From: Gemmatimonadales bacterium
GTDB taxonomy: Bacteria > Gemmatimonadota > Gemmatimonadetes > Gemmatimonadales > GWC2-71-9
Assembly: GCA_039917855.1 (NCBI GenBank)
Contig: JBDSIR010000146.1
Span: forward strand, 2,047 to 66,046
Direction of reading: 5' to 3'
Length of the DNA stretch: 64,000 nt
The translations under genes and the position numbers were made by a program. Under the pieces are notes generated by a model. It was given only the letters and a program-made list of their open reading frames with translations. It searched no databases and had not been told where the DNA came from. Positions 1-62,992 of this stretch are shown here, piece after piece; positions within the stretch are counted from its first letter, which is position 1, and every line of letters begins with the position of its first letter.

Positions 1-1064
1 CGGGCGGACCGCCCGTCGCGCCCGCCGCGACCCGCTTCCTGATAGTACGACTCCGGGGTCGGCGGCAGGGTCCAGTGCACCACGAGCCGGACGGTGGGCT
101 TGTCGATCCCCATCCCGAAGGCGCAGGTGGCCACGACGACCTCGACCTCATCCTCCAGGAAGCGGCGGAGCGTCGCCTTGCGATCCTTGGCGGGAAGGCC
201 TGCGTGGAACGGTGCGGCCGCGATGCCCCGGGCCGAGAGTCCGCGCGCGATCCCCTCCGCGAGTCCTCGGGTGGGGACATACACGAGCGTGGTGCGATCC
301 TCGGTCCGGAGGAGCGCGAGGAGGCGATCCCAGCGGTCGCGTTCCGAACGCACCGCGACCACGCCGAACCAGAGGTTGGGACGGTCGAAGGATCCAAGAT
401 GGAGATCCCACCTGCCGCGGGTGGCGCCCCACGCGCCGAGGCGTAGGGTGGCAGCGATGTCGTCCCGCACCTCCGGGGTGGCGCTGCCGGTCAGGGCAAC
501 GACCGGCGGACGGCCGAGCTTCCAGCGGAGGCGACCGAGCCGGCGGTAGGCGGGGCGAAAATCGTGCCCCCACTCGACGAGGCAGTGCGCCTCGTCCACG
601 GCCAAGAGCACTGGTCGGACCTTTGCCGCGGCGAGATCGGTGGACAGGCGCTCGAGACGCTCGGGCGAGACGTACAGAAGCTTCAGCTCTCCGGACTTCA
701 CCCGCTCCATCACCTCGGCCTGTTGGGGCGCCTTGAGCAGAGAGTTCAGGGCCGCGGCCGCTATGCCACGAGCTTGCAGCGCGTTCACCTGGTCCTGCAT
801 CAGGGCCAGCAGAGGCGACACCACCAGCGTGAGTCCATCGAGGACCAGCGCGGGGACCTGGAAGCAAAGGGACTTGCCTCCCCCAGTCGGGAGGATGGCG
901 AGCGTGTCACGTCCCGCGAGGATCGACTGGACCACCCGGCGCTGAGCGGGACGGAAGTCGGGAAACCCCCAGTGGCGGGCGAGAAGGGCGCGCGCCGTGT
1001 CCAGTCGCTCCGCCAGAGGGTGCGAAGTGCGAGGTGCGAAGTCCGGGGAGGTCGGAGCGGCCAT
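1..1064 (-). CDS. recQ: ATP-dependent DNA helicase RecQ, N-terminal part (continues beyond window start)
   Basis: Absent from the ORF track because it has no stop in the window. My minus-strand translation from ATG at 1064 gives MAAPTSPDFAPRTSHPLAERL..FRPAQRRVVQSILAGRDTLAILPTGGGKSLCFQVPAL..LLAVDEAHCLVEWGHDFRPAYR..LTGSATPEV..VVATCAFGMGIDKP..YYQEAGRGGRDG. The + ORF 564-1244 is its antisense shadow. Confidence 0.9.
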   Translation of the reverse strand, partial: MAAPTSPDFAPRTSHPLAERLDTARALLARHWGFPDFRPAQRRVVQSILAGRDTLAILPTGGGKSLCFQVPALVLDGLTLVVSPLLALMQDQVNALQARGIAAAALNSLLKAPQQAEVMERVKSGELKLLYVSPERLERLSTDLAAAKVRPVLLAVDEAHCLVEWGHDFRPAYRRLGRLRWKLGRPPVVALTGSATPEVRDDIAATLRLGAWGATRGRWDLHLGSFDRPNLWFGVVAVRSERDRWDRLLALLRTEDRTTLVYVPTRGLAEGIARGLSARGIAAAPFHAGLPAKDRKATLRRFLEDEVEVVVATCAFGMGIDKPTVRLVVHWTLPPTPESYYQEAGRGGRDGRSA

Positions 1065-1195
1065 GGCCCCAACGTACCGATTTGCGAAGAGCGCTCCGTC
1101 ACCAGAAAAGCGCGGGCCGACCCAAAAATCGCGAGCGGAGCCGACCCCCAGCCAGGGCACCCAGCACTTCGCACCTCGCACTTCGCACTTCGGAC
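1020..1195. repeat. Heptamer-array inverted repeat, GTGCGAA type, spanning the recQ start
   Basis: Left arm gtgcgaagtgcgaggtgcgaagtccggg (1020-1047) lies inside recQ codons. Right arm cacttcgcacctcgcacttcgcacttcggac is at 1165-1195. Confidence 0.9.
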
Positions 1196-1244
1196 CTTGC
1201 CGCGCCCCCCCCGACCGGTAGCTTCCCGAAGGGTCACCCCCACC

Positions 1245-3098
1245 ATGCCCGATACCGTCGCCGTTCGCTGTCCCGAATGCGGGACCTCGCTCCCGAATCT
1301 CGCTCGCGCCTGTCCCCACTGTGGGGCGGCGTCGCCGGTGGCGCGCACAGCGGAGGGGCTGCTCGCGAGCCCGGTGGAGCCCTCGGCGCCCCCCCCGCTC
1401 GATGACCCGGAGCAGATCCCCATCGTCGAGGAGCTCAAGGCGGAGCTCGAGCCACGACTCGTGCTCTTGAAGCCGTTGGCGAAGGGGGGGATGGGGCTGG
1501 TCTATCTGGCGCGCGACCCGGCACTGAAGCGACTGGTGGTGGTCAAGGTGCTGGCCCCGGCCCTGGCGCAGAACGACCGCGCCCGCGCCCGCTTCAAGCG
1601 GGAAGCGGAGTCGGCGGCTGCGGTGGCGCACCCCAACGTGGTGAGCATCTACGAGGTCGGTGAGCTGCCCCGCACCGGGACCTCGTACATGGTCATGCAG
1701 TTCGTCGAGGGTCCCACGCTCACGGAAGCCTTTCCGAACGGCACCGTCGCGGCCGAGGACCAAGCCCGCCGGATCCTGGGGGAAGTGGCGAGCGCGCTGG
1801 CGGCGGCCCACGCCCGCCGCCTGGTCCATCGCGACATCAAGCCGACCAACGTGATCCTCGAGCGGGAAACGGGCCGGGCCATCGTGCTCGACTTCGGCAT
1901 CAGCGCCGTGCTCACGCCGTCGAAGCCGCGGGGGTCGTCAGGTCGCATGGCGCGCCTGACCGGCCCGCAGACCATCGTCGATCACACCATCATGAGCGGC
2001 CTCACCAGTGAAGGTGTGGTGATCGGGACACCGTACTACATGAGCCCCGAGCAGGCCGCGACCGAACCGGTGACCCCGAAGAGCGATGTCTACTCGCTCG
2101 GCGTCCTGGCCTTCGAGCTGGTGACCGGAGGGCTTCCCTTCGTCGAACCGACGCCGACAGCGATGGCGGCGGCGCACCTCAACCAGATGCCGCGCCCGGT
2201 GATGGAGTTGCGGCACGATCTCGATCCCGAGTTCGCCGCCCTCATCGACCGCTGCCTGTCCAAGTTGCCGGCCGATCGTCCCTCGGCGGAGGCGATCGCC
2301 CGCGCCCTGATGCCGGACCAGGGCACCCAGATCGAATGGCCGCCCCCGGGGCTGGACCGCCTCACCGGTCGCGGATGGCGGGCGCTGTTGCGCGCGGGCG
2401 CGGCCGAGGTGCTGGCGTTGCTGTCGCTGGCGCTGGCGCCGTCGCTCCGCACGCTCGAACCGCATCAGGTGTCGGTGATCAGCGCGGCCGCCGCCGTGGT
2501 GGCGTTCGCCTTTCTGATGCTGATGGCGGGTGCGACCGCCTCCGACGCCATGACGGGGATGCTCCGCGGACTCAAGGCCGGCTACCCGCGGGACGTGCTG
2601 CTCGACGCGGCGCTCGACAAACGGCGCGATGCCGGGGATTTGGTGAACGGCGTCGGGGTGTTCGCGCTGGTGCAGGAGGCCCAGCGTCGAGCGATGCTCC
2701 GTGCCCGCCGCGCCGGCGCCGCGACTCTGCTTGCGGGCATCGCGGGGACCGGACTCCTTTCCGGCGCCCTGGGCGCGGGTCTCCTGGGCAACGACCAGAC
2801 CGGGATCGCCATCGCCGCGCTACCGCTCACCCTTGGCCTCCTGGTGCGCACGCTCATCACCGGCGCGGAACGCCGGGTGCGTATCCGAGCCACCCGCGAA
2901 GCGGGAGAGCCGGTCTTCTCCCGCACGCCGCCGATCCGAGCGGAGCTGGTGAAGGGGTGGCTCGAAGATGCCGGACGCAATGCGCCCCGCCCCGGGACTG
3001 CTCAGGACCGGCTCCGACTCGAAGCGCTGACGCTCCCGTGGCTCCTGTTGCTGGGGCCGCTGGTGGCGCTGGTGGGTGCGTTGTTGCTAGAGAGATAG
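1245..3098 (+). CDS. Ser/Thr protein kinase with N-terminal zinc ribbon and C-terminal membrane region
   Basis: ORF 564-3098 trimmed to the in-frame ATG at 1245. It has CPECG..CPHCG, kinase motifs GGMGLVYLA, VVVKVL, HRDIKPTN, DFGIS, YMSPEQ, and a hydrophobic C-terminal half. Confidence 0.9.
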   Translation: MPDTVAVRCPECGTSLPNLARACPHCGAASPVARTAEGLLASPVEPSAPPPLDDPEQIPIVEELKAELEPRLVLLKPLAKGGMGLVYLARDPALKRLVVVKVLAPALAQNDRARARFKREAESAAAVAHPNVVSIYEVGELPRTGTSYMVMQFVEGPTLTEAFPNGTVAAEDQARRILGEVASALAAAHARRLVHRDIKPTNVILERETGRAIVLDFGISAVLTPSKPRGSSGRMARLTGPQTIVDHTIMSGLTSEGVVIGTPYYMSPEQAATEPVTPKSDVYSLGVLAFELVTGGLPFVEPTPTAMAAAHLNQMPRPVMELRHDLDPEFAALIDRCLSKLPADRPSAEAIARALMPDQGTQIEWPPPGLDRLTGRGWRALLRAGAAEVLALLSLALAPSLRTLEPHQVSVISAAAAVVAFAFLMLMAGATASDAMTGMLRGLKAGYPRDVLLDAALDKRRDAGDLVNGVGVFALVQEAQRRAMLRARRAGAATLLAGIAGTGLLSGALGAGLLGNDQTGIAIAALPLTLGLLVRTLITGAERRVRIRATREAGEPVFSRTPPIRAELVKGWLEDAGRNAPRPGTAQDRLRLEALTLPWLLLLGPLVALVGALLLER

Positions 3099-3171
3099 CG
3101 CGAAGTGCGAAGTGCGGGGTGCAAATTGAAAGGCACAGCCTGTAGCCTGTTGGCTGTCGGCTGTCGGCTGG
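3099..3171. repeat. Solo GTGCGAA-type array followed by a GGCTGTC-type hairpin
   Basis: cgcgaagtgcgaagtgcggggtgcaaa (3099-3125) starts right after the kinase stop. It is followed by cacagcctgtagcctgt-tggctgtcggctgtcggctgg (3134-3171). Confidence 0.8.
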
Positions 3172-3217
3172 AGGCTTTGGGGACCGCGGTCAGGCCCCAG
3201 TTGATTTATTGGGGCGG

Positions 3218-4156
3218 CTAGGGGGTGGGGGCCGTCGGCGTCCAGAACGCCTCGAAGTTCTCCCTGCCGTTGCTCAGCACGACGTGGGGGTCGCTGTTAT
3301 CGGCGCCCGCAAGCCAGAGGTCCCCGGTGCCGTAGAGAAGCCGCGTGCCATCAGGGGACAAGGTGGGCGGACGGTTCCCTCGGGCACTTCCGAGGAGGTC
3401 ATACCGGGAGGTCGCAAGTTCCAACCGGCCTATCACCCAGTCGTTCCCGCTGACGTCGAGAAGGAACAATGACTGGCCGTCGGGAGACCAGGAGGGGAGG
3501 TACCCCGTAAAGCCCGCCGTGCTATCCACTACCACCGCCTCGTCGCCGGTGGCGAGCATCTTCGTCACGACCCAGCGGATCGCAGTGTGGTGGACGGGCT
3601 CATAGACCTGACGGATGAACGCGATCCGTTCGCCATCTGGAGACCAGTTTCCCCCCCAAGCACTGACCCCATCGGGGAAGGTCAGGCGTTGCAATCCTGA
3701 CCCGTTCGACCGGATGCGGTAGAGCTGCTTATCAGCCGAAGGCGTGGCCTGATAGTCAAATAGGATCCAGTCATCAGCCAGAGCCCATTTGGGATTCGTC
3801 GCGCGTACGCCAGCTGGGAGTACCACCTTCCTCAACCCCTCCCCCGAGGCATCGACCAGAAAGAGCTCCCACCAATCCTCGAAGACCACCGTCCGTCCGT
3901 CAGGCGAGACGGAGGGGCTCTCAGGCCAGTGCAAGTGACCGAGGAGGGGCCGCGGATCGGTGCCGTCCGTTGCCATGGTCCACAACGCCGCGCTTGCTGT
4001 GTAGTGGGAATCGGGATGGATGCTGGTGAAGATGATCCGATCGAACAATGGTGGTCCGGAATACCCGTCCGGACCCGTGGCTCCGCCCTCTCCACGGCAC
4101 CCGAGGGCGACGAGGATCGCGAGCGACACGGAGGTGAGGCGGATCACCAGTCTCAT
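3218..4156 (-). CDS. TolB-like WD40/PD40 beta-propeller lipoprotein
   Basis: ORF 3218-4219 trimmed to MRLVIRLTSVSLAILVALGC (lipobox-like). It has repeated SPDG motifs (SPDGRTVVF, SPDGERIAF, SPDGQSLFL, SPDGTRLLY). Confidence 0.75.
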   Translation of the reverse strand: MRLVIRLTSVSLAILVALGCRGEGGATGPDGYSGPPLFDRIIFTSIHPDSHYTASAALWTMATDGTDPRPLLGHLHWPESPSVSPDGRTVVFEDWWELFLVDASGEGLRKVVLPAGVRATNPKWALADDWILFDYQATPSADKQLYRIRSNGSGLQRLTFPDGVSAWGGNWSPDGERIAFIRQVYEPVHHTAIRWVVTKMLATGDEAVVVDSTAGFTGYLPSWSPDGQSLFLLDVSGNDWVIGRLELATSRYDLLGSARGNRPPTLSPDGTRLLYGTGDLWLAGADNSDPHVVLSNGRENFEAFWTPTAPTP

Positions 4157-4283
4157 TGGATGCCCAGAACGAGCGAGGGGTACTGCCCAAGGTGACGACC
4201 GGTGTCGCCCCCCTCGCACAACCGACCCTGATCTGAGTGCAAACGGGGGCCGGGGTCAGGCCCCCTGAGGTCGCGTTCGGAGA

Positions 4284-4514
4284 TCATTTCCGGAAGACTT
4301 CCGGCCACCGGCGGACACCGTACCACCGCTTTCCGTCCTTCGGCATCGACCAGACATTCGAGACTTCACGCAGTTCCGGGAGGACTTCCTTGCCCTTGCC
4401 GACCGCCACGCGCACCGCCTGCCGCCACGAGCCCTGGGCGCGCCGCTTGGCCCACTTGTCGGAGCCCGCGGTAGTGATGCCGGCAATAGGGGTATGTCGG
4501 ATGGAGCGGCTCAT
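4284..4514 (-). CDS. Hypothetical basic 76-aa protein, third cistron after the RelE-like toxin
   Basis: Its ATG at 4514 directly abuts the toxin stop (4515-4517). Mostly G/C-ending codons. I recognise no domain. Confidence 0.4.
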   Translation of the reverse strand: MSRSIRHTPIAGITTAGSDKWAKRRAQGSWRQAVRVAVGKGKEVLPELREVSNVWSMPKDGKRWYGVRRWPEVFRK

Positions 4515-4778
4515 TCAGCGATCCCAATAGGCATTCTTGCGGTCAGCGACCCGGACGACTACGACGAGCACCCGTTGGTCGTACACCTGATAGAGGATCC
4601 GAAAATCGCCTGAGCGGATCCGGTACTCGTTGCGGCTCCCCTTAAGCTTCTTCACCCCGTCAGGTCGGGGATCATCGGCCAACGCCTCGATCCGAGCACC
4701 GACCTGTCGTTGGATCTTCCGAGGTAGCTGCTCGAATTCCGATTCTGCATCTTCTGTGAACTCGATCCTGTAGGCCAC
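4515..4778 (-). CDS. RelE/ParE-family type II toxin
   Basis: 87 aa with GTG start: MAYRIEFTEDAESEFEQLPRKIQRQV..LKGSRNEYRIRSGDFRILYQV..VLVVVVRVADRKNAY, a typical RelE/StbE pattern. More A/T-ending codons than its neighbours. Confidence 0.85.
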   Translation of the reverse strand: MAYRIEFTEDAESEFEQLPRKIQRQVGARIEALADDPRPDGVKKLKGSRNEYRIRSGDFRILYQVYDQRVLVVVVRVADRKNAYWDR

Positions 4779-4821
4779 CTTGCTCCTCCCATCAGGTGCA
4801 GGGCGCCCTTCCGATCATCGC

Positions 4822-5076
4822 TCAGAGGTCGAGCCGCTTCTTGATCTGTTCCCAGGGAACGCGCTTGTCGCTCTTGGCGAGGACGCGGCGCATTTCCTCA
4901 AGATCGTAACGGTCTTCCAGAGCCTGAAGAAGGTCAAGGTCGGAGGCCGAGATCATTGCGGCAACACGCTTTCCGTGCCGCTCAAGGACGATCCGGTCTC
5001 CCCGCACCGAAACCTCATTCAGTAGATCGGATAGTCGCTCCCGAGCCGCGCTAGCGGATACACGTGTAACTGACAT
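4822..5076 (-). CDS. Phd/YefM-family antitoxin
   Basis: ORF 4822-5196 trimmed to MSVTRVSASAARERLSDLLNEVSVRGDRIVLERHGKRVAAMIS, preceded by AGGAG. Lies directly upstream of the toxin. Confidence 0.8.
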   Translation of the reverse strand: MSVTRVSASAARERLSDLLNEVSVRGDRIVLERHGKRVAAMISASDLDLLQALEDRYDLEEMRRVLAKSDKRVPWEQIKKRLDL

Positions 5077-5243
5077 CGTGAACTCCTGACCGGCACTGCA
5101 TCGTCGGCACCACCGACGGGCATGCGGTAAGGGCAGATCGACCCCTCTGGCGGCGGATGGGACAGCCAATCCCACCCAGGGGGTACGCGACGCCAATTAA
5201 TGCGCCACTTGATGGCAGGGCCCCACCCCACCATCCGAGACAA

Positions 5244-5272
5244 ATATTAGTACAATTTGTACGATTTGTCAA
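5244..5272 (-). promoter_or_regulatory. Sigma70-like promoter with palindromic operator candidate (TA cassette)
   Basis: AT-rich island in GC-rich DNA. The minus strand reads TTGACA-aatcgtacaaattgtac-TAATAT with 17-nt spacing. The spacer contains the palindrome GTACAAATTGTAC, flanked by tgtacg..cgtaca. Confidence 0.5.
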
Positions 5273-5307
5273 TAACGTACAAAACACCGTCGCCCCGGGG
5301 ACCGAGG

Positions 5308-5532
5308 TCAGGCCCCCTCTTTGTTTTTCGGCTTGGCGAACCGCAGGATCACCCCGATGATGGCAAAAATGAATGCGGCCAGGATCATCCGGTCATCGTG
5401 CTGCAGCATGCCGGTAAGGCCAAGAGTGAGCGCCGCCATGAGGATGCCGAGGCGGAGCATCTGATAGCTGGGCAGCCATCTGCGCCTGGGAACGGCCGGT
5501 TGGATCTCTTGGGGTCGTTGGTCGTTGGTCAT
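5308..5532 (-). CDS. Small membrane protein (hypothetical)
   Basis: Hydrophobic core LRLGILMAALTLGLTGML..ILAAFIFAIIGVILRF. The first 7 codons (MTNDQRP) lie in a repeat arm; alternative ATG at 5460. Confidence 0.4.
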   Translation of the reverse strand: MTNDQRPQEIQPAVPRRRWLPSYQMLRLGILMAALTLGLTGMLQHDDRMILAAFIFAIIGVILRFAKPKNKEGA

Positions 5533-5617
5533 TGGTCGTGAACGTGGGAGGGTCGGCGATCGCCATCACGGATCTACTGGACATGGGCCAACAACCAACG
5601 ACCAGCGACCAATGACC
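5513..5617. repeat. Heptamer-array hairpin, GGTCGTT type
   Basis: Left arm ggtcgttggtcgttggtcattggtcgtg (5513-5540). Right arm ccaacaaccaacgaccagcgaccaatgacc (5588-5617). Confidence 0.9.
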
Positions 5618-6366
5618 TATTTCTTGAGGAAGGCGCTGATCGCGGTCCGGAAATCGGGGGTCGCTCGGCTCATCGCGTTGATGCGGGCGCCGAGCCTGAT
5701 GGCGTCATCGAAGGGGAGCCCGTCCTGGGCGTAGCAGAGCTGCTTCGTCAGGGCGTACGCGGTGAGTGAGACGCCGGTCAGCTGGTTCACGAGGTGCGAA
5801 GTGCGAGGTGCGAAGTCCGGGGTGCGGATGACCTCGGTCACCAACCCAAGGGCCTGGGCCTCAGCCGCTGAGAGGAGGCGGCCGGTGGCGGTGAGCTCAA
5901 GCGCTCGCTTCTCGCCGACCTGGCGCACCAGCATCGCCATCACCATCGCGGGGACGAAGCCGCGCTGGATCTCGGGGTAGCCGAACTGGGCCGTGTCGGC
6001 GGCCAGCACGAGGTCACAGGCGGTGGCGAGGCCGCATCCGCCCGCGAGTGCCCTCCCCTGCACCACTGCGACGACCGGCTTGGGGAGCGCGCGGAGCCCC
6101 TGGAACAGGGCGCCCAACCGCAGCGCGCTCTGCTCGTTGTCGGCGGGATCCTTGTCGGCCGAGGCGAGGAGCTCGTCGAGGTCGGCGCCGGCGCAGAAGT
6201 CCTTCCCCGCCCCCTTGATGACCAGCACCCGAACGGCGGGGTCGTGGTCGGCGCGGGCGACGCCCTCGTGCAGCGCTTCGATGAGCGCCGACGACAGCGC
6301 GTTCCGCTTGTCGGGGCGGTTCAGAGTGAGCGTGAGAATGCCAGCGTTGAGATCGGTTTGAAGCAT
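5617..6366 (-). CDS. Enoyl-CoA hydratase/isomerase (crotonase) family, methylglutaconyl-/isohexenylglutaconyl-CoA hydratase-like
   Basis: ORF trimmed to MLQTDLNAGILTLTLNRPDKRNALS. Has VIKGAGKDFCAGADL and GYPEIQRGFVP. Contains the repeat-encoded PDFAPRTSH segment. Confidence 0.9.
   Translation of the reverse strand: MLQTDLNAGILTLTLNRPDKRNALSSALIEALHEGVARADHDPAVRVLVIKGAGKDFCAGADLDELLASADKDPADNEQSALRLGALFQGLRALPKPVVAVVQGRALAGGCGLATACDLVLAADTAQFGYPEIQRGFVPAMVMAMLVRQVGEKRALELTATGRLLSAAEAQALGLVTEVIRTPDFAPRTSHLVNQLTGVSLTAYALTKQLCYAQDGLPFDDAIRLGARINAMSRATPDFRTAISAFLKK
5794..5822. repeat. Solo GTGCGAA-type array inside the enoyl-CoA hydratase CDS
   Basis: A 29-mer gtgcgaagtgcgaggtgcgaagtccgggg, identical to 1020-1048. 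It encodes PDFAPRTSH on the minus strand. Confidence 0.9.
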
Positions 6367-6385
6367 CGGGTTCGTCGTGGTTCCC

Positions 6386-6441
6386 GGGTGAAGGGTCGAG
6401 GGTCGAGGGTGCATCACCCTCCACCCTCCACCCTTAACCCT
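6386..6441. repeat. Heptamer-array hairpin, GAGGGTC type
   Basis: gggtgaagggtcgagggtcgagggtg-ca-tcaccctccaccctccacccttaaccctt. A tight hairpin containing the TAA stop of the upstream gene. Confidence 0.9.
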
Positions 6442-6841
6442 TCGCCTGCTTGGCCTGGGTCGGGAGCGATCTCAAGATCGCCGCCGGGACGGGGATCCGC
6501 ATCCGGAGGAGGGCCGTGGAATAGACCTTTCCCTGCGCATCGGTCTTGAGCGAGATGGTGCCCCCACCATCGAGCGCGCCGTGGAGGAGGAAGTTGAGCG
6601 CCCACAGGTTGGGGAGCTCGAAGCGTTCCACTCCGCTCACCATCCCCTTGAAATGCGCCTTCACGCGCGCCAGCGTGACTTCCTTCCGGATGAGCTCGTA
6701 CCACTCCGGCTGGAGCGCGATCAGCCCGACATTGGCGGTGTCGCCCTTGTCTCCGCTCCGGGCATGGGCAAGCCACCGAAGCTGCACCTGGCGGGCCTGT
6801 GGGCCAGTGGGCCGGTGGGCCTTCTTCCGAGCGCTAGGCAT
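6434..6841 (-). CDS. AtuA C-terminal-domain-like small protein (partner of DUF1446/AtuA)
   Basis: Has [32 protein letters not shown], as in the C-terminal region of long AtuA proteins. The ATG at 6841 overlaps the AtuA stop. The start is uncertain because the track ORF begins at 6862. Confidence 0.65.
6793..6822. repeat. Octamer array GGGCCNGT inside a CDS (AtuA small partner N-terminus)
   Basis: gggcctgtgggccagtgggccggtgggcc. It encodes AHRPTGPQA on the minus strand. Confidence 0.8.
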
Positions 6842-8207
6842 TGAGAACCTCGACGTGGACATGAGGTTCCACCACGGTCCGGTCGATCAATGCCGGCCAG
6901 TACGCCACGATCTCCTCTACCGCCGGGCGGCCACCGGCAAACCCGGTCACGCTCGGCGGGCCTGTGAGGACCAGGGGTGCGATCTCCCGGCTGAACCGCT
7001 CCACCGCCTTCTTGTCGTTGCTCCGCACCCCCACCCTCAGCTGCACCTCCGCTTCGCGGCCAGTGGGCCGGTCGGCCAGCGGGCCATGCGTCGCGTTCAC
7101 GCCGACAAATTCCGTCAGGATGGTCTCGAACTCGAGCCCGAGGTCCTTGAGCCGCTGGCGAAGGATCTTGTCCGCGGCTTTCGCCTTGTCGTACGCTTCG
7201 GGCCAGCTGTACACCAGCGTCCCGACCGCCTTCCAGCCATAGTGATAGGCGATCGAGACCTTGAGCTTGTCGGTGCGCGGCCCCCCGCGGATGCCGGAGA
7301 CGGCCACCCGGTCCTTCCCCGCCTGCTTGAGCCGGATCGAGGTGAAGTCGGCGACGCCGTCGGGAGTGATGTAGTTGTGGGGGTCGCCCATCTCGTACAC
7401 CAGCTGTTCGCTCACCGAGGCCACACTCACCACGCCGCCGGTGTTCGAGTGCTTGGTGACCACGAAGCTCCCGTCGGGTGCGACCTCGACGATCGGAAAG
7501 CCGGGGTCGGCCAGCCCTTTCACCTTCCGCCAGTCCTTCAGGAGGTTGCCCCCCGAGGCCTGGGCGCCGCACTCGATGATATGCCCGGCGATCGTCCCGG
7601 CGGCCATCTTGTCCCAGTCGTCCCTCCCCCAACCGTGCTCGTGCACGAGGGGACCCAGCGTGAGGCCGGTATCGGTGACTCGGCCTGTGATGACCAGATC
7701 GGCGCCGCGGCCCAAGGCCTCGACCACCGGCGCCATCCCGATATAGGCGTTGGCCGAGACCACCTGGTCACGGATGTCGCTCAGAGGACGGCCGGTATCC
7801 ATGTCGCGCATCTCGTGGCCGGCGGCCAGGAGTTCGTCGAGCCGCGGCAGGATGTCGTCCCCGGAGACGAGAGCGACCTTGACCTGCGCCGAGAGGCCGA
7901 GCTTCCGCGCCGCCCCGATGACCGCCTCGGCGCAGGCGCGTGGATTGACCCCGCCGGCGTTCGAGATGACCCGGAACCGCTGCGACGCGAGATCGGGGAG
8001 GATCCGTTCCATCAGCGGCACGAAGTCGCGCGCATAGCCGTGATCCGGGTCGCGCGACTTCTGCTTCTGCATGATGGACATGGTCACCTCGGCGAGGTAG
8101 TCCATCATCAGGTAATCGATCGGGCCGCCCCGGACCTGACGGACCGGCGCTTCGAGCCAGTCCCCCCAGAATCCCTGCCCGGCGGCGATGCGGACGGTCT
8201 TGGACAT
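6834..8207 (-). CDS. Acyclic terpene utilisation AtuA-family protein (DUF1446)
   Basis: 457 aa: [42 protein letters not shown], the pattern I recognise as AtuA/DUF1446. Its ATG overlaps the peptidase stop (ATGA). Confidence 0.85.
7057..7088. repeat. Octamer array (C/G)GGCCNGN inside the AtuA CDS
   Basis: cggccagtgggccggtcggccagcgggccatg. It encodes [10 protein letters not shown] on the minus strand. Confidence 0.75.
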
Positions 8208-14987: not shown

Positions 14988-15258
14988 GACCCGCGAAGCG
15001 GCGGACCCTCTCCGCGGTCTGTCATCCTGAGGGCGCTTCAGCGCCCGAAGGATCTCCGCCGTCCTTGCCGAGATATGGCATGGCGTCGTGCTTCATCCCA
15101 AACTCGCGCGGGTCGATCCACTGCTTCCAGTGAGGCATCGCAATACTTGTCCTGCGCAGGCCCCGTGAGGATCCCGGCAGAACTTGCCGGAGATCCTTCG
15201 GCCCCTGAAGGGGCCTCAGGATGACAGGGCGCGGGGTTCGTCCGCCGCTTCGCGGGTC
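14988..15258. mobile_element. MITE-like element, GTCATCCTGAGG family, copy 1
   Basis: Inverted ends of about 70 bp: gacccgcgaagcggcgga..ctgtcatcctgagggcgcttcagcgcccgaaggatctcc at 14988-15058 and its reverse complement at 15187-15258. No ORF of note inside. Confidence 0.75.
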
Positions 15259-15276: not shown

Positions 15277-16959
15277 CTAGAAGAACACCGGCTCCCGATA
15301 CGCTCCCCACACCCCTTCCAGCGTGTGGCGGATCTCGTAGAGGGTGCAATAGGCACGGGCGCAGTCGAGCATCGCCGGGATGACGTTCTGGTCCTCGGTC
15401 GCCGCCAACTGGAGGGCGGCGAGCCGCTGTTCCACCAGCGCACCGTCACGCTCGGCGCGGAGCTTGGCCATTCGGATCCGCTGGGTCCGCTCGGCGGCGT
15501 CGGAGACCTTGAGGATGTCGACGTCGGGCTCGTTGTGTTCGAGAAAGCGATTGACCCCGACCACCGCCTTGTGGTCGGACTCGACCTCGGCCTGGAAGCG
15601 CGAAGCGCTCGACGCGATCTGGCGCTGGAACCATCCCGACTCGATCCCCGCCACCACCCCGCCCTGCGCCTCGATCTCGGCGAAGAGCCCTTCGGCCTCG
15701 CGCTCGAGCCGGTCGGTCAACGCCTCGATGAACCAGGACCCGCCGAGGGGATCCTGGACGTTGGGGACCCCGGTCTCGTAGGCGAGGATCTGCTGGGTCC
15801 GGAGCGCGATCCGCACCGAGTCCTCGGTCGGTAACGCCAAAGTCTCATCGAAGGCGTTGGTATGGAGCGACTGGGTGCCGCCCAGCACGGCGGCGAGCGC
15901 CTGATAGGCCACCCGCACCACGTTGTTGTATGGCTGCTGCGCCGTGAGCGAGACCCCGGCGGTCTGGCTATGGAAGCGCATCTTCCAGCTGCGGTCGTCG
16001 GTGGCGCCGTATTTGTCGCGGAGACGCCGGGCCCAGATGCGCCGGGCGGCGCGGAGCTTGGCGATCTCCTCGAAGAAATCATTGTGGATGTCCCAGAAGA
16101 ATGAGAGCCGCGGGCCGAAGGCGTCGACCTTGAGCCCCCGCGCCATTCCGCGCTCCACATAGGTGAAGCCGTTGGCGAGCGTGAAGGCGAGTTCCTGCGC
16201 CGCCGTGGCCCCCGCCTCGCGGATGTGGTAGCCGCTGATGGAGATGGTATTCCATTTAGGCGCGTGGGTGCTGCCCCATTCGAACATGTCGACGATGAGC
16301 TTGAGCGCCGGCTCGACCGGATAGACCCATGCGTGCTGGGCCATGTACTCCTTGAGGATGTCGTTCTGGACCGTGCCCTGCAGCTTGGCCGACGGCACCC
16401 CCTGTTTCTCGGCGGCGGCGATGAAGAAGCACCAGAGCATCGCCGCGGGTCCGTTGATCGTCATCGACACGGAGACCTGGTCGAGCGGGATCCCGTCGAA
16501 GAGCGTCTCCATGTCGGCCAGCGAGCTGATCGCCACGCCGCACTTCCCGACCTCGCCCTCGGAGCGGACGTGATCGGAGTCGTAGCCCATCAGGGTCGGA
16601 AAATCGAACGCCACGGAAAGTCCGGTCTGGCCGCGCGCCAGCAGGAACTTGTACCGGGCGTTGGTGTCCTCGGCGGTACCGAAGCCGGCGAACTGGCGCA
16701 TCGTCCAGAGCTTGCCCCGGTACCCCGACGGGTGGATGCCCCGGGTGTAGGGGAACTGCCCCGGGAGTTCCGCCGCGGGCATCGTGTCGAGCGGGGTATA
16801 CACCGGCTCAAGCTCGAGGCCGGAGATGGTGTTGAAGTCGGTATCATCGCGGAGCGGCTGCTTGGCATAGAGCGCCCGCCACTTGGCGATCTCGGCGCGG
16901 AGCGTGGCCAGTTCCCGCTCCTGGGCGGCCAGGCGTTCGTCGACACGGGTCGTGGTCAT
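15277..16959 (-). CDS. Acyl-CoA mutase large (catalytic) subunit, methylmalonyl-/isobutyryl-CoA mutase family
   Basis: 560 aa: [64 protein letters not shown] lies upstream of the ATG. Confidence 0.92.
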
Positions 16960-18074: not shown

Positions 18075-18300
18075 GGCCCGCGAAGCGGCAGCGACACTAC
18101 GCCTGCTGTCATCCTGAGGGCGCTTCAGCGCCAGAAGGATCTCCGGGTCGCTTGTCGTGGTACTTCGAGGCCGTGATGCTGATCGGCAGCGATTCCAAGC
18201 ATGGGCTCCGCGATCACCGCTCCGAACCAGCACGACGATCCTGGCATCCCAATCATGCCGGCCGGAGATCCTTCGGGGCCTGAAGGCCCCTCAGGATGAC
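18075..18300. mobile_element. MITE-like element, GTCATCCTGAGG family, copy 2
   Basis: ggcccgcgaagcggcagcgac..gtcatcctgagggcgcttcagcgccagaaggatctcc on the left and ggagatccttcggggcctgaaggcccctcaggatgac on the right (ends at 18300). Confidence 0.7.
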
Positions 18301-18342
18301 AGCGCGCGTGATGGGTACGGCCGCCCGGGACGGGCGGCCCTA

Positions 18343-26485: not shown

Positions 26486-26555
26486 GGTGACCAGTGACCA
26501 GTGACCCGTGACCGGGCCGACTGGTGCGATCTTCCCTCATAGGCCCGGTCACCGG

Positions 26556-26573
<18 letters not shown>
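26486..26573. repeat. Heptamer-array hairpin, GTGACCR type
   Basis: Left arm ggtgaccagtgaccagtgacccgtgaccgggcc, 24-nt spacer, right arm ggcccggtcaccggttaccggtcaccggtcac. The right arm holds the last aspS codons and its TAA stop. Confidence 0.9.
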
Positions 26574-33614: not shown

Positions 33615-33770
33615 AGAGTCTAGAGTCTAGAGACTAGAGTTCTGAGGGGTGCAAGGGAGGATCTCGCCCCTGCACCCCTGAAGAGTCTAGAGTTTGGAGT
33701 TTAGAGGGGTGCCGGGGAGAAACTCGCCCCAGCACCCCTCTAGACTCTAGACTCTGAACTCTCGACTCTT
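33614..33770. repeat. Composite array element, GAGTCTA type, with two internal hairpins
   Basis: gaagagtctagagtctagagactagag, hairpin aggggtgc-N18-gcacccct, a second gagtctagag array, a second hairpin aggggtgc-N19-gcacccct, then the inverted array ctagactctagactctgaactc. Confidence 0.9.
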
Positions 33771-39896: not shown

Positions 39897-39970
39897 TAGC
39901 AGGGGCGGGACTCGAACCCGCGACCCCGGCATTATGAGTGCCGTGCTCTAACCAGCTGAGCTACCCTGCC
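39897..39970 (-). tRNA. tRNA with CAU anticodon (elongator Met; tRNA-Ile2 not excluded)
   Basis: The reverse complement folds as a cloverleaf: GGCAGGG-UA-GCUC-AGCUGGUUA-GAGC-A-CGGCA-CUCAUAA-UGCCG-GGGUC-GCGGG-UUCGAGU-CCCGC-CCCUGCU-A. Has a G1-U72 wobble; CCA is not encoded. Confidence 0.85.
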
Positions 39971-40103
39971 GTGACGGCCCGTGAGAAGTGACCGGTGACC
40001 CGTGACCGGGCCCTGAACGCACGTCGCCGCGAGGTGGCAAAACTAGTGGCGGCACCACCCTATCGCAACCGAGCCAACATCAGGCCCGGTCACCACTTAC
40101 CGG

Positions 40104-40114
<11 letters not shown>
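39971..40114. repeat. Heptamer-array hairpin, GTGACCR type
   Basis: Left arm gtgacggcccgtgagaagtgaccggtgacccgtgaccgggcc, 69-nt spacer, right arm ggcccggtcaccacttaccggtcaccggtcac. The right arm contains the ftsB stop. Confidence 0.9.
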
Positions 40115-41795
<1,681 letters not shown>

Positions 41796-43506: not shown

Positions 43507-45128
43507 GGTTCCACGGCCCCGCGGCGAAAGCGCACCAGCCCGCGCGAGGTAGCGACCCAGAGCCAGTCGGCCTCCACACTCACGTCCCACGCCTCGCCCG
43601 GAAGCGCGTCACCCACGGCGAGGATCCGCTGCACGGGGCCACCAAGGCGGGCAAAGCCGACACCGCGCGATCCGGCGATCCAGACCCCCTCGCGACCGTC
43701 GGCGAGGGCACGCCCTCGTCCCAGTTGGTCCGAAGGATCGGGGCCTGCCGTCCAGGCACCGGTGCGGGGATCTCGCCAGAGGAGCGAGTGGTCGGTGAGA
43801 GCGACAAGGGTGTCGCCGTGCCAGAGCAGCGCCGGGACCGGTGAGCGCAGCACGCCGAGGGCCTCCCACCCGGGGGCCTGGCGGAGATCGATCGCGCCGG
43901 GGAGGGCGGCGAAAAGTCCGGTGGGCGTGCCGACCCAGGTGGTATCTCCGGCGATCGCGAGCGAGTATGCCGGCGCCGCGTAGCCGGGAGCGATGCGGAC
44001 CACGCCGCTGTCGGTGAGCTCGGCGACCCCCGCGGCGGTGCCGAAGATGAGCCGTCCCCGCCGCGCTGCGATCGCGAGGATCCGGCGATCGGCGAGACCA
44101 TCCTGTTCGGTGAGCCAGCGGACCCGCTCACCGGTGCGGGTGAGCGCGAGCACGCCCTGATCGGTGCCGAGCCAGAGAAGCGAATCGACCACGCGCAGGG
44201 CACGCACCTGGCGGAAGGGCTGACCGAAGACCTGGTCACCGAAGTACCACTTCGTTCCGTCGATCCCATCGGGCACCTCGACCAGTGCGGCCCCACCGGC
44301 GAAGGAGCGGTCGGTGACCGCCCACGCTCCGCCGGGGACGGCGAAGACCGCGCCGACCTCTTCGCCGGGAAGTCCCCAAGGGCGGGGTTCGGGAGAAACG
44401 CTGCCAAATGGCAGCCACAACAGCCCCGACCCGTCGGTGCCGAGCCACCAGCCGCTCTGATCGGACGCGGGGGCGGCGGCGCGGAGCCGCACGGCACGGA
44501 GCCCCGGCCCCATCAGTGTCCCCGAGATCGCGCCGCCGAGCTGGGGGTTGGCGCGTGCGGCATCCTCGACCGTGGTGGCGCGGATGAGGTCGGACCCCCG
44601 GGGCGGCTCGGTGGCCGGGATCGCGATCCCCATTCCCCGGGTGGCCACGACCCACCCACTCGGCGTCCGCAAGTAGAGTCCATCCGCAGGGCGGCTCCGA
44701 TCGACCGCCGCCACGAGGACCGCGCCCCCCGCGGATCCTTGATCCCAGAGGTCGAGCACCGGGTCGTACCGGAGCCATCCGGAGCCGGTCACGATCCAGA
44801 GCGACTGGTCGAGCGGATCGACCAGCGAGCCGCGCGCCTGCTCCAGGGCGCCCTGCCCCGGTGCGTCGAACGGTCCTTGCCACTCGCGCCGGACCTGATC
44901 GCGGACGAGGACCTGGCCGGCGCTCACGACGTAGAGGCGTTCGAAGCTGGAGGCGACGGCGTAGATGTGAAGCATCTCGCGTAGGACGACGCGGTCCTCG
45001 GTGCGCCAACGTGTTTGGGCGCGCACAGGAGGAGGGACGAGAAGCCAACACACGAGGGTCATCCCGAGCAGAGCGAGGGATCTACCCAGCGCTGATCGAC
45101 GACGGATCCCACGATCCGATCGATGCAT
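43503..45128 (-). CDS. Secreted beta-propeller protein (two-component-regulator-propeller-like repeats)
   Basis: Repeats WIVTGSGWLRY, WWLGTDGSGLLWL, LWLGTDQGVLAL, TWVGTPTGLFA, VWIAGSRGVGFA, LWVATSRGLVRF. The first 24 codons lie in a 100-bp TIR element; alternative ATG at 45062. Confidence 0.7.
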   Translation of the reverse strand: MHRSDRGIRRRSALGRSLALLGMTLVCWLLVPPPVRAQTRWRTEDRVVLREMLHIYAVASSFERLYVVSAGQVLVRDQVRREWQGPFDAPGQGALEQARGSLVDPLDQSLWIVTGSGWLRYDPVLDLWDQGSAGGAVLVAAVDRSRPADGLYLRTPSGWVVATRGMGIAIPATEPPRGSDLIRATTVEDAARANPQLGGAISGTLMGPGLRAVRLRAAAPASDQSGWWLGTDGSGLLWLPFGSVSPEPRPWGLPGEEVGAVFAVPGGAWAVTDRSFAGGAALVEVPDGIDGTKWYFGDQVFGQPFRQVRALRVVDSLLWLGTDQGVLALTRTGERVRWLTEQDGLADRRILAIAARRGRLIFGTAAGVAELTDSGVVRIAPGYAAPAYSLAIAGDTTWVGTPTGLFAALPGAIDLRQAPGWEALGVLRSPVPALLWHGDTLVALTDHSLLWRDPRTGAWTAGPDPSDQLGRGRALADGREGVWIAGSRGVGFARLGGPVQRILAVGDALPGEAWDVSVEADWLWVATSRGLVRFRRGAVEP

Positions 45129-45157
45129 GCTAGATCCCTCGCTCCGCTCGGGATGAC
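45058..45157. mobile_element. 100-bp MITE-like element, GTCATCCCGAGC family
   Basis: Ends gtcatcccgagcagagcgagggatcta (45058-45084) and ctagatccctcgctccgctcgggatgac (45130-45157). Confidence 0.8.
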
Positions 45158-50356: not shown

Positions 50357-50443
50357 GGTGACCAGTGACCGGTGACCAGTGACCGGGCCTCAAGAGAGGA
50401 GCTCACCAACAGGCCCGGTCACTGGTTACTGGTTACTGCTCAC
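50357..50443. repeat. Heptamer-array hairpin, GTGACCR type
   Basis: Left arm ggtgaccagtgaccggtgaccagtgaccgggcc, 22-nt spacer, right arm ggcccggtcactggttactggttactgctcac. The right arm edge holds the hbd stop. Confidence 0.9.
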
Positions 50444-51309: not shown

Positions 51310-51568
51310 GGCTGCTGGCTACTGGCTATTGGCTGCTTCATCCTGCGAACTGGCACTGGCGCGATCGGCCAGAAGCCAGGAGCCAGGAGCCTTCGAGTTC
51401 GATGTCCACCGGAACAGCAGCACCGCCTTGCGAGTATCACGGTTGCAAAGGGCTGCCGGCTACTGGCTGTTGACTGCTCCGTGCTGCGGACTGGCACTGT
51501 CGCGATCGGCCAGAAGCCAGGAGCCAGGGGCTTTCGGGTTCGATGTCCACCGGAACAGCAGCACCGCC
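51310..51568. repeat. Two tandem copies (period about 140 bp) of a GGCTACT-type array hairpin plus tail
   Basis: Copy 1 at 51310-51427 and copy 2 at 51450-51568. Each is ggctgctggctactggct.. / ..ggccagaagccaggagccagg, followed by ttcg.gttcgatgtccaccggaacagcagcaccgcc. Confidence 0.9.
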
Positions 51569-54160: not shown

Positions 54161-54196
54161 GCGGGTAGGCGGGTGGGCGGGTAGGCGGGTAGGCGG
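54161..54196. repeat. Solo octamer array, GCGGGTAG type (G-quadruplex-capable)
   Basis: gcgggtaggcgggtgggcgggtaggcgggtaggcgg lies upstream of the thiolase start. It has five GGG runs. Confidence 0.85.
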
Positions 54197-57754: not shown

Positions 57755-58177
57755 GTGCGTCGAACGGAACGGCAGGGCGAGTTGGCGGTCTGGGCCGCGA
57801 TGGGGCTCGGGGTCGGGCTTGTGGCGGGGTTCGCCCTGGCCGAGGCAGTCGGCGCGGTGGACCTGAAGCGCCTGGCGCGCGCCGTGGCACGGATCGGCGC
57901 CGACCACAGCCCGGCCACGCTGACGCCGGATCAGGCGGCGCGCGCCGCGGCGCTGGCCCTCGGCCAGACCCCCGGGCTCGCCGGTCTGGAGCTCGAGACC
58001 CGGGCCCTCGGCCCCGGTCGGGTGGAGCTGCTCGGGTGGGTTCCCGACCGACGCAGCCGGGCGCTGGCCGAACGCACCGTGGCGGGACTCGACGGGATCA
58101 CCGCCGTGGTCAACCGGCTCCTGGTGGAGCGGGAAGACAGCAACGCGCCGCTCACCCTCGCGGACCAGTCGGCATGA
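57755..58177 (+). CDS. BON-domain membrane protein
   Basis: 140 aa, GTG start after GAGGAG. Has a TM helix and VELLGWVPDRRSRALAERTVAGLDGITAVVNRL. Its stop overlaps the valS ATG (ATGA). Confidence 0.75.
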   Translation: MRRTERQGELAVWAAMGLGVGLVAGFALAEAVGAVDLKRLARAVARIGADHSPATLTPDQAARAAALALGQTPGLAGLELETRALGPGRVELLGWVPDRRSRALAERTVAGLDGITAVVNRLLVEREDSNAPLTLADQSA

Positions 58178-60910: not shown

Positions 60911-61110
60911 CCCTCTCCCCCCGACCCCCTCTCACTGTCGGGAGAGGGGGAGCGCCACGGAACAGCTCCCCTCCCCCGACAAGGGGAACACCACGGTTCA
61001 ACTCTCCTCCCCCGACAGGGGGAACACCACGGTTCAACTCCCCTCCCCCGACAGGGGGAACACCACGAAACAGCTTCCCTCCCCCGACAGGGGGAGGGGC
61101 CGGGGGAGGG
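60911..61110. repeat. Tandem array, 36-bp period, about 4.5 units, of the CCCCTC..GAGGGG hairpin family
   Basis: Units at 60966-61001, 61002-61037 and 61038-61073 (ctcccctcccccgacagggggaacaccacggttcaa), flanked by partial and divergent units. Confidence 0.9.
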
Positions 61111-62417: not shown

Positions 62418-62992
62418 TGGCCCAGCGAGCGGGGGTGCCGCCACTGCCGGGGGCGCGTCCAGCCGCGTTCTTGGACCGCGACGGGACCATCATCGAGGAT
62501 CCCGGCTACCTCGACCACCCCGAACAGGTCCAGCTCATCCCCGATGCAGCCTCCGCCATCCGTCGGCTCAATGAAGCGGGGTGGGTCGTCGTCGTCATCA
62601 CCAACCAGAGCGGCATCGCCCGCGGCTATTACACCGAGGCCGACTACGAGACGGTGCGCGCGCACGTCGACGAACTCCTGTCGCGCCAAGGGGCGCGCGT
62701 CGACGCGCACTATCACTGCCCCCATCATCCCAGCGTTTCGGCCTGCGAGTGCCGCAAGCCCGGGCTCAAGCACTTCCTCCACGCCATCGGCCGGTTCGGG
62801 ATCGATCCCGCGAAGAGCTGGTGCGTCGGCGACAAGGTGGGCGACGTCACTCCAGCGATCCGACTCGGCGCCCACGGCCTCCTGGTCCGCACCGGCGAAG
62901 GGGTCGCCAATCGGGTCGAGGCCGAACTGGCGGGGTTCGGCTCGGTGCCCGACCTCGCCGCCGCGGTGAGTCGGATGCTGGGGGGCGGGTAG
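62417..62992 (+). CDS. gmhB: D-glycero-beta-D-manno-heptose-1,7-bisphosphate 7-phosphatase (HAD-IIIA)
   Basis: 191 aa: FLDRDGTII, VVVITNQSGIARG, CPHHP..C.CRKP, VGDK. The stop TAG lies in the first unit of an octamer array. Confidence 0.85.
   Translation: MAQRAGVPPLPGARPAAFLDRDGTIIEDPGYLDHPEQVQLIPDAASAIRRLNEAGWVVVVITNQSGIARGYYTEADYETVRAHVDELLSRQGARVDAHYHCPHHPSVSACECRKPGLKHFLHAIGRFGIDPAKSWCVGDKVGDVTPAIRLGAHGLLVRTGEGVANRVEAELAGFGSVPDLAAAVSRMLGGG

Follow-up and report, generated by a model that had tools for sequence, protein, structure and literature searches.

Within a 64,000-nucleotide (nt) stretch of DNA from a Gemmatimonadales bacterium (contig JBDSIR010000146.1, the whole stretch being referred to here as the window), an identical piece of repeat DNA lies in frame in two unrelated open reading frames (ORFs), those of the RecQ-family helicase gene recQ and of an enoyl-CoA hydratase gene. 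The best overall explanation, which we consider reasonably probable, is that both pieces belong to the (GTGCGAR)n family of heptamer arrays, that members of this family have been copied between loci and are read in frame, and that the hydratase copy is old and the recQ copies younger. The features concerned, in window coordinates, are:

1-1064, minus strand: 5′ part of recQ, which runs off the window; identified by RecQ-family helicase homologues (PF00270/PF00271) and by synteny with the related loci L108 and L109.
1019-1048, minus strand: left arm, CCCCGGA CTTCGCA CCTCGCA CTTCGCA CC in the sense direction; recQ codons 6-16, (S)PDFAPRTSH(P).
1062-1064, minus strand: recQ start codon ATG, ancestral, in the 111-nt spacer between the arms.
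1157-1197, plus strand: right arm, CCCAGCA CTTCGCA CCTCGCA CTTCGCA CTTCGGA CC; with a further ~30 nt it forms the feature 1131-1197.
1246-3098, plus strand: ORF of a Ser/Thr protein kinase, syntenic with the Pkinase genes of L108 and L109; stop codon TAG at 3096-3098.
3099-3125, plus strand: degenerate (GTGCGAR)n array, GCGCGAA GTGCGAA GTGCGGG GTGCAAA, directly after the kinase stop.
5617-6366, minus strand: enoyl-CoA hydratase / methylglutaconyl-CoA hydratase-like gene of 249 amino acids (aa), with PF00378/PF16113 homologues.
5788-5822, minus strand: in-frame array of the hydratase gene, CCCCGGA CTTCGCA CCTCGCA CTTCGCA CCTCGTG in the sense direction, with PDFAPRTSH encoded by 5820-5794.
58266-58349, plus strand: in-frame heptamer hairpin of 84 nt in valS (58174-60909, plus strand).

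Exact matches to the 29-mer GTGCGAAGTGCGAGGTGCGAAGTCCGGGG are found at 1020-1048 and 5794-5822, as the initial annotation had reported, against 0.00 expected from dinucleotide shuffles, and the identity in fact extends over 30 nt (1019-1048 equals 5793-5822); an inverted copy with 2 mismatches lies at 1160-1188. Both exact copies are antisense to minus-strand genes, and the translations agree with the single frame claimed for them: on the minus strand each is divided into codons as C CCG GAC TTC GCA CCT CGC ACT TCG CAC C, and recQ codons 7-15 (1046-1020) and hydratase codons 183-191 (5820-5794, in the context ...IRTPDFAPRTSHLVNQ...) specify PDFAPRTSH. The shared segment spans four or five (GTGCGAR)n array units, or (CYTCGCA)n on the coding strand. 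Tandem Repeats Finder (TRF) assigned a period of 7 at 1020-1042, 1164-1192, 3100-3116 and 5790-5816, and head-to-tail 7-nt units in at least 2-3 copies are present at all four (GTGCGAR)n sites by both TRF and unit composition. Matches to (GTGCGAR)2 with at most one mismatch number nine (overlapping) as compared to 0.23 expected in 64 kb, and are confined to four sites in the window, the arrays at 1020, 1160, 3099 and 5794. The third copy, at 3099-3125, had been described as solo; the copy is real, but it is degenerate and has a partner, the kinase gene being bracketed by complementary arms of 28 nt (1165-1192 and 3101-3128, 89% complementary). Stop codons occur in 0/6 frames of the (GTGCGAR)n unit and, 7 and 3 being coprime, all frames of a given strand of such an array yield one cyclic peptide. 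As a common phase is also expected in 1/3 of same-orientation pairs, the same phase of the two copies is uninformative, and the shared reading frame was rejected as a meaningful coincidence.

At ORF level, the same repeat DNA would be read as protein in two unrelated genes, as had been proposed. The array copies are probably translated, and conceptual translation gives (M)AAPTSPDFAPR as the N-terminal peptide of the recQ ORF, and TPDFAPR and TSHLVNQLTGVSLTAYALTK as tryptic peptides of the hydratase segment. An assembly artefact is ruled out, since the hydratase array is identical in the independent metagenomes L110 and L112, and the array-derived peptides in RecQ, the hydratase and valyl-tRNA synthetase (ValRS) are genuine parts of their ORFs, attributable neither to frameshift nor to assembly error. 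The orthologue comparison suggested in the initial annotation as a check on lineage specificity found PDFAPRTSH to be lineage-restricted: it is exact solely in hydratase orthologues with 90% identity or more, variants being seen to ~80%, and occurs in 0/120 RecQ relatives, a sample obtained with a partial query and composed mostly of fragments, with full-query identity of at most 69% (82% over 73% for fragment P0128).

The hydratase possesses a full-length crotonase fold that is undisrupted at the array (1UIY, E=2.7e-46, residues 10-249, no gap), and its AlphaFold2 model (mean predicted local distance difference test score, pLDDT, 90.9) places residues 182-196 in one helix. The closest homologues listed, all from Gemmatimonadales and ranging from 96% to below 70% identity, are nearly all 249 aa long, as is every orthologue whose DNA was compared, and indels in the segment were found in 0/25 aligned sequences. 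The segment aligns gap-free to the start of the helix which follows the GLV..V strand, a position occupied by PPGKALEEAK in 1UIY and LANLEQETR in 5ZAI. Since there is no indel relative to orthologues or to solved crotonases, the segment is not an insertion, and the inserted element that had been envisaged for this gene is not borne out; the array overwrites, with length unaltered, the first half of a stretch encoding a surface helix, and it was in place before several lineages diverged. Twelve orthologues from metagenomic contigs, whose DNA was compared in heptamer register, contain the following units at this position:

Window, L112 and L110: CTTCGCA CCTCGCA CTTCGCA CCTCGTG
L108: CTTCGCG CTTCGCA CTTCGGA CCTTGTG
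L129: CTTCGCA CGACGCA CTTCGCA CGTTATC
L113: CTTCGGA CCTCGGA CTTCGGA CATCGTG
L114: CTTCGGA CCTCGGA CCTCGGG
L109: CTTCGCA CCTCGCA CGTCGGA
L115: TCTCGGA CCTCGGG CCTCGGA
L116 and L118 (79-80% identity): barely or not periodic, encoding the usual ELAPRAAEL and ELEARAAAL

Judged by this comparison, the hydratase array is older than the separation of lineages that are now 15-18% apart in DNA. Its subsequent change has the character of array evolution, not of ordinary coding DNA. Between the window and L113 the same C>G change is seen in three successive units, one of these being synonymous (CGC>CGG), and 3/4 of the differences fall at one unit position (post hoc P=0.033, or ~0.004 if the substitution is also required to be the same). 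Between L109 and L115, 15/42 nt differ in the segment as compared to 4.0% outside it (Fisher p=6e-10), and similar patch replacement was observed for L114 as compared to L118 (p=1e-6) and L117 as compared to L116 (p=4e-4). The array state is likewise patchy on a neighbour-joining tree of the hydratase gene, built without the segment from ~690 nt of the metagenomic contigs. Furthermore, the unit variant in the hydratase gene matches that of nearby arrays of the same genome, being GCA-type in the window (arrays at 1020, 1160 and 3099), GGA-type in L114 (array 7679-7694) and mixed in L108 (5303-5326 and 18537/19001). The array contains the rare codons GCA, CCT and ACT, with family shares of 6.6%, 10.7% and 5.8%, respectively, which are kept in most relatives, and between the window and L110 synonymous differences affect 0/10 codons in the segment as compared to 32% elsewhere.

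The recQ copy forms one arm of an inverted pair, in agreement with the initial annotation, the right arm being an inverted repeat of 1020-1048 that is 93% complementary to it and 111 nt apart. The order of hydratase gene, small ORF, kinase gene and recQ is kept in relatives. The kinase-recQ intergenic region measures 181 nt in the window as compared to 96-118 nt in six orthologues, and a ~57-nt insertion (~1131-1187), which follows a conserved GGCAAGG(G)TCCG and corresponds to a gap in all six, holds most of the right arm. Neither arm is found in any of the six aligned recQ orthologous loci, and the recQ N-termini of L108, L109 and L114-L118 lack the left arm. The notion that the element had donated the recQ start codon fails on this alignment, where the ATG column does not vary, orthology extends over the ~55 nt upstream and the block TTCGGGTGACGG..N..TACCGTGGGGC-ATG is common to the window and the six array-less loci. 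The upstream ATG is needed because neither the window nor L117 has the internal Met found 11 residues before HWGF in other orthologues, and the N-terminal extensions of the orthologues show coding-like third positions; on these comparisons the upstream ATG is the real, ancestral start of recQ. As the two arms flank conserved DNA, they cannot be one inserted unit. The RecQ N-terminus preceding PLAER(M/L) is of variable sequence and comprises 11-22 residues, that of the window being no longer than those of its orthologues. The contigs of L110 and L112 stop before recQ. The leader itself, CCGCG..TTCGGGTGACGG-N20-24-TACCGTGGGGC-ATG, was seen in seven Gemmatimonadales loci (1065-1125 in the window). 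In the RecQ N-terminus of L108 (14629-14647), another heptamer array, (CAGTCCG)n, with the reading AQSAVRSAQ, occupies the same place, and arrays have therefore entered the variable RecQ N-terminus on more than one occasion.

A third in-frame case is found in valS, where (GGGTCRT)n (58266-58296), a 22-nt loop and (CCACGAC)n (58319-58349) encode GHGSRVMGRGALEGRNASHDSRPTTQD between a conserved N-terminal helix and PPPNVT, with conceptual peptides such as NASHDSRPTTQDPF.... The distance from Y..W to PPPNVT is 46 aa in the window valS as compared to 23-33 aa in 79/80 orthologues with both motifs. The remaining orthologue, P0284, has 36 aa and is the fragment of highest similarity, at 87% identity across 73% of the query length; its extra residues also look array-derived. 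The valS hairpin is a true insertion, unlike the hydratase array.

According to the explanation favoured here, 7-nt arrays of many units would fill this Gemmatimonadales genome, usually as intergenic inverted hairpin pairs, and because the (GTGCGAR)n unit is stop-free in any frame, copies can persist inside genes. The hydratase copy would be old and would evolve as an array, its units changing jointly and patches of it being replaced between close relatives as other same-family arrays in the genome donate sequence non-reciprocally (through ectopic gene conversion or templated repair), and it would stay in frame because three units equal seven codons. The recQ copies would be younger, one arm lying in the poorly conserved N-terminal extension and the other having come with the 57-nt intergenic insertion, and the 30-nt identity between recQ and the hydratase gene would reflect recent copying inside a local cluster of four same-family arrays. 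Gene conversion as the mechanism, the direction of copying and translation itself are what we infer. The observations are the identity and phase of the copies, their nature as arrays, the lack of an indel, change that is concerted and patchy, and the ancestral start.

Several points weigh against this explanation. The test for concerted change between the window and L113 was post hoc, and the patchiness of the array state could come partly from tree error or from interspecies homologous recombination. The conservation of synonymous sites is statistically weak, at (0.68)^10 ~0.02 for one pair. When the window is compared with its closest relatives, divergence in the segment does not exceed that in the remainder of the hydratase gene, and ongoing conversion is therefore not shown in the window's lineage. 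The more distant orthologue L116 is already weakly 7-nt periodic, in view of which the array may have originated gradually and in place from GC-rich helix-coding DNA. Finally, no donor array was found for any inferred conversion event in the 7-20 kb available per relative.

A lead on where such arrays come from is provided by genes of the PF05635 family (23S-rRNA-IVS / S23p / Avd-like four-helix-bundle proteins, IVS denoting intervening sequence). All 17 such genes examined, from five phyla, have 7-8-nt tandem arrays on both sides, inverted in 15/17 and same-strand in the other 2. Seven of these were obtained by a profile search of the fetched loci, in which a hidden Markov model (HMM) search with domain-trimmed seeds and a coverage filter converged on seven genes from Gemmatimonadota, Anaerolineales, Acidimicrobiia and three Bacteroidota; inverted heptamer arrays stand on both sides of each of the seven, and in two the units differ from the unit used for fetching. 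The 105 matches of an iterated HMM (round 4, stop-to-stop ORFs) were rejected as PF05635 genes, being translated arrays. The remaining ten come from an independent sample, a plasmid tblastn search that returned 33 records, mostly from Nostocales and other cyanobacteria, of which ten were fetched: 10/10 of the 'four helix bundle / S23 ribosomal protein' genes are flanked on either side by 7-8-nt arrays, which are inverted in 8/10. Among these, Azospirillum L121 is a genuine 23S rRNA intervening sequence, and several of the plasmid genes lie between cas genes; the PF05635 gene of Gemmatirosa (L122) is flanked by octamers. The PF05635 loci are:

L108, 18537-19044
L115, 760-1250
L011, 4990-5450
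L006, 3150-3700
L016, 2200-2800
L055, 640-1300
L088, 4650-5200
L119-L128, plasmid sample

In L108, the PF05635 gene (23S_rRNA_IVP; family of Avd, a protein of diversity-generating retroelements, DGR) sits between inverted (GTCCGAA)n and (CYTCGGA)n arrays, and the whole is an insertion between the stop codon of an acyl-CoA dehydrogenase gene and the ATG of a MOSC gene. In L115, a PF05635 gene with arrays at both ends takes the place of a different repeat element of the near-identical L109. The arms in the window share with 15/17 PF05635 genes the possession of inverted terminal repeats of short tandem units and a long stem. No PF05635 gene was found in the window by tblastn with two PF05635 proteins, the 1048-1157 loop being occupied by the recQ leader, and the window hairpins are therefore gene-less relatives at best. 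In the literature searched, a general link of PF05635 or four-helix-bundle genes to heptamer repeats was not found beyond a note on Coxiella (PMC4990558). The PF05635 association is accordingly taken as a lead and not as a demonstrated origin of the arrays.

A wider proposition built on this lead, tentative and in our estimation rather doubtful, is that heptamer arrays of the short tandemly repeated repetitive (STRR) type form the termini, as repeats, of a selfish hairpin element of wide distribution, carrying PF05635 in its autonomous form, from which gene-less hairpins and solo arms are derived, and that an active templated process tied to this element family homogenises the arrays and either overwrites coding DNA in frame, as in the hydratase gene, or lodges entire hairpins in essential genes, as in valS.

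Independent origin in place by replication slippage on proto-repeats, with the 30-nt identity a product of convergence, is unlikely. The recurrence of (GTGCGAR)n in unrelated phyla indicates that convergence on the unit happens, the right arm adjoins a conserved, unit-like GGTCCGCG, L116 is weakly periodic at the hydratase site, and slippage favouring 7-nt units was proposed by Mrazek in 2007, as cited in PMC4692102. Length steps of 7 nt, however, would shift the frame, and the hydratase length is invariant; moreover, the end unit CCCCGGA, which is non-canonical, and the variant order T/C/T are both part of the identity, L111 has the same 29-mer again, and the replacement of a patch between 96%-identical relatives (L109 and L115) is not predicted by point mutation combined with slippage.

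Selection at the RNA level also appears improbable. Complementary arrays in the recQ leader, at the 5′ and 3′ ends of the kinase gene and in the hydratase mRNA would in this case pair in cis or in trans, creating RNase III sites or occluding translation starts and so coupling the expression of neighbouring genes. A predicted stem of ~28 bp formed by the recQ arms encloses the leader and ATG, the kinase gene is bracketed by complementary arms, and the rare codons of the hydratase array are conserved. The arms of an orthologous hairpin upstream of the hydratase gene co-vary (GGGTGGA/CCCTCGA in the window as compared to GGGCTGA/AGCCCC in L112), and IVS stems of related S23p elements are RNase III substrates (PMC4990558). 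Against this, the fold of the whole recQ region is marginal as compared to shuffles (z=-1.96), the hydratase array has no partner inside 4.6 kb, and orthologues regulate the same genes without the arms, with no family in Rfam matching either the arrays or the conserved recQ leader.

Still more doubtful is a discrete mobile hairpin, resembling miniature inverted-repeat transposable elements (MITEs), that inserted into recQ and the hydratase gene and brought with it new codons and the recQ start. Heptamer hairpins do act as insertions elsewhere, examples being the 5505-5625 pair (window and L110 as compared to L108 and L109), the 57-nt insertion by recQ, the 84-nt hairpin in valS and the array-ended PF05635 genes of L108 and L115, and other hairpins in the window may qualify as MITEs. 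For the recQ start codon and for the hydratase gene this reading is refuted, as the hydratase gene has no indel, the recQ ATG and leader are orthologous to those of array-less relatives, the arms stand on either side of conserved DNA, the window RecQ N-terminus is not lengthened relative to orthologues, and no target-site duplication was seen. Selection on PDFAPRTSH itself, for example as a Ser/Thr phosphorylation site for the intervening kinase, in favour of which it can be said that the peptide contains R-T-S and that both genes flank a Ser/Thr kinase gene, is highly improbable, since the identity covers all synonymous positions including three rare codons, orthologues vary the peptide by array units and not conservatively, the peptide lies within a modelled hydratase helix and no other RecQ carries it.

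The (GTGCGAR)n family is one of many in the window, which has a G+C content of ~69%. Arrays found in the 64 kb sampled number 24 with period 7, as compared to 0, 3, 7, 3 and 1 with periods of 5, 6, 8, 9 and 10, respectively, an excess of period 7 over neighbouring periods such as characterises heptameric simple sequence repeats (SSRs). Most are inverted pairs with spacers of 4-110 nt and site-specific units, those at 5513/5588, 6392/6415, 26487/26545, 39988/40086, 46745/46831, 50358/50417, 51309/51368 and 58266/58319 being examples, and the pairs fold as long hairpins with z-scores of -4.7 to -6.5. In many of the hairpins each unit contributes 6 bp and 1 mismatch, placing a mismatch at every seventh position (6372-6450, 5505-5625, and 185-290 of L111). 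The arrays are mainly intergenic, and just 3/24 of period 7 are open in frame and GC3-rich on both sides, namely the hydratase array, a short array at 11883 and that at 58321 in the valS hairpin. Outside the window, the 22-mer GTGCGAAGTGCGAGGTGCGAAG was found in more than 107 stretches of one-genome-per-species contigs, nearly always inside a longer (GTGCGAR)n array, with hosts among Gemmatimonadota (many copies in Longimicrobiaceae), Bacteroidota, Planctomycetota, Acidobacteriota, Actinomycetota, Acidimicrobiia, Chloroflexota, Anaerolineales, Nitrospiraceae, Methylomirabilota, Verrucomicrobiota, cyanobacteria and others. The exact 29-mer was found in 1 JGI metagenome contig (L111), as the left arm of an intergenic hairpin at a locus unrelated to the window, where a metallophosphoesterase gene begins with its ATG at the end of the hairpin.

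Two other classes of repeat were considered. Clustered regularly interspaced short palindromic repeats (CRISPR) consist of repeats of 24-48 nt with unique spacers of similar length between them, and a CRISPR array is ruled out by the contiguous 7-nt units without unique spacers. Repetitive extragenic palindromic (REP) sequences are palindromes of ~20-40 nt in which a 5′ GTAG-type tetranucleotide is conserved, and they are accompanied by a transposase, the REP-associated tyrosine transposase (RAYT); a GTAG-type 5′ tetranucleotide motif is absent from the arms, and RAYT genes were not searched for.

Further repeats were observed in the vicinity of the hydratase gene and elsewhere. The hairpin at 6372-6450, between the stop codon of an AtuA-ferredoxin gene and the hydratase ATG, occupies the same site in three relatives with differing units (GGGTGGA/CCCTCGA in the window; GGGTCAA/CCCTCAA in L108, 9920-10000; GGGCTGA/AGCCCC in L112, 1850-1947), both arms changing together between relatives. 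The stop codon of the upstream gene falls in the first unit, and L109 and L110 have an unrelated repeat pair at this site. Directly 3′ of the hydratase stop lies the pair (GGTCRTT)n/(CGACCAA)n with a 52-nt loop (window 5505-5625; L110 6690-6810); as it is present in the window and L110 and not in L108 or L109, it represents a ~110-nt insertion. A hairpin family of the form (GTGACCR)n-GGGCC ... GGCCC-(YGGTCAC)n has conserved arms and unrelated loops of 20-70 nt, with three copies in the window (26487-26573, 39981-40114 and 50358-50443) and one in L118 (9182-9260); the copy at 40.0 kb is directly upstream of a tRNA gene (39897-39970, minus strand). Two further inverted-repeat families, GTCATCCTGAGGGCGCTTCAGCGCC.GAAGGATC and TGTCATCCCGAGCAGAGCGAGGGATCTA, are located in the window at 14988-15258, 18077-18309; 45058-45157, 63047-63148, and in L109 at 1090-1290, 16150-16340; in L109 the former sits in intergenic DNA at the sites where L115 and L108 have PF05635 elements. 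Octamer arrays accompany the heptamers (ATGGGCGG, GCGGGTAG/GGCGGGTA and GACCGCCC; window 41676-41794, 54161-54196, 62984-63013 and 63788-63818), some overlapping stop codons. A terminator-like hairpin, GGGGNCCG.GGTCAGGCCCC, occurs three times ~1.05 kb apart (3178-3200, 4244-4266 and 5296-5318) in the 3100-5600 stretch, which is of lower GC (62.5%) and extra as compared to most orthologous loci. Gene duplication was rejected as the source of this triplication, as the stem is terminator-like and tblastn of the 333-aa PD40/Tricorn-like ORF (3218-4219) detected no second copy in the 3100-5600 stretch. Longer tandem repeats are 36 nt x 4.2 directly after valS (60945-61095), 141 nt x 1.8 (51310-51568) and 60 nt x 2.2 (33622-33751), the latter two containing heptamer arrays.

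Of the known systems, bacterial heptameric SSRs are the nearest. They were first reported for Calothrix, as the STRR sequences of Nostocales (Calothrix PCC 7601), according to the account cited in PMC4692102, where GGGAATC in Xanthomonas and GGGGA(C/T)T in Nostoc are described as heptameric repeats, over-representation of 7-nt SSRs is attributed to Mrazek 2007, and the origin and function of heptameric SSRs are regarded as still unsettled. The arrays described here resemble them in having tandem 7-nt units in 2 to ~6 copies, mostly intergenic and often as inverted pairs, in varying in length and sequence at the same intergenic site between close relatives, and in having no accepted function. 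They differ in that the window genome is of high GC with many unit families together, that the GTGCGAR unit does not form G-quadruplexes (G4), and that window copies are situated inside conserved coding sequence and evolve in concert. Rickettsia palindromic elements (RPE), which Ogata et al. are said to have described in 2000 in frame in protein genes, measure 100-150 bp, are fixed in sequence and bring extra residues with them. They are palindromic repeat DNA which remains in frame within conserved genes and is translated, and in this the valS hairpin and the recQ arm resemble them, whereas the hydratase array adds no residues and is built of homogenised 7-nt units.

TAACTGA direct repeats are known from Beggiatoaceae, cyanobacteria and Bacteroidetes (MacGregor 2015, PMC4679880), and the likeness to the present arrays lies in one heptamer array occurring in distant phyla, mostly beside start or stop codons and sometimes inside ORFs. 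The intragenic TAACTGA copies are peripheral in their proteins and are direct repeats, with stops in all frames of the forward orientation, in contrast to the window, where one copy is located length-neutrally at residue 183 of a 249-aa enzyme and a whole hairpin is contained in valS. The 23S rRNA IVS of Coxiella contains heptameric repeats, GACAGAT x2-3, of strain-variable copy number beside an S23p ORF, is excised by RNase III and is regarded as a selfish element (PMC4990558). IVS with an S23p/PF05635 ORF, as in Coxiella and Leptospira, have a small four-helix-bundle gene between stem-forming inverted repeats; unlike these, the window arrays lie outside rRNA and have no PF05635 gene.

Already known, then, are the excess of heptameric SSRs, their intergenic position, inverted pairs and turnover between relatives (PMC4692102), as well as the presence of one heptamer across distant phyla with occasional peripheral intragenic copies (PMC4679880). 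For annotation, the present case carries the warning that array-derived peptides belong to ORFs. The association of arrays with PF05635 genes, which is new, constitutes a concrete and testable tie of heptamer repeats to IVS-type selfish elements, and the occurrence of an entire hairpin in frame in valS is likewise new. Also new is a length-neutral array deep in a conserved enzyme that evolves by units and by patches: the hydratase array has long been resident there with length unchanged, and since it is replaced unit-wise and patch-wise, repeat dynamics rewrite protein sequence, beyond the adding of tails.

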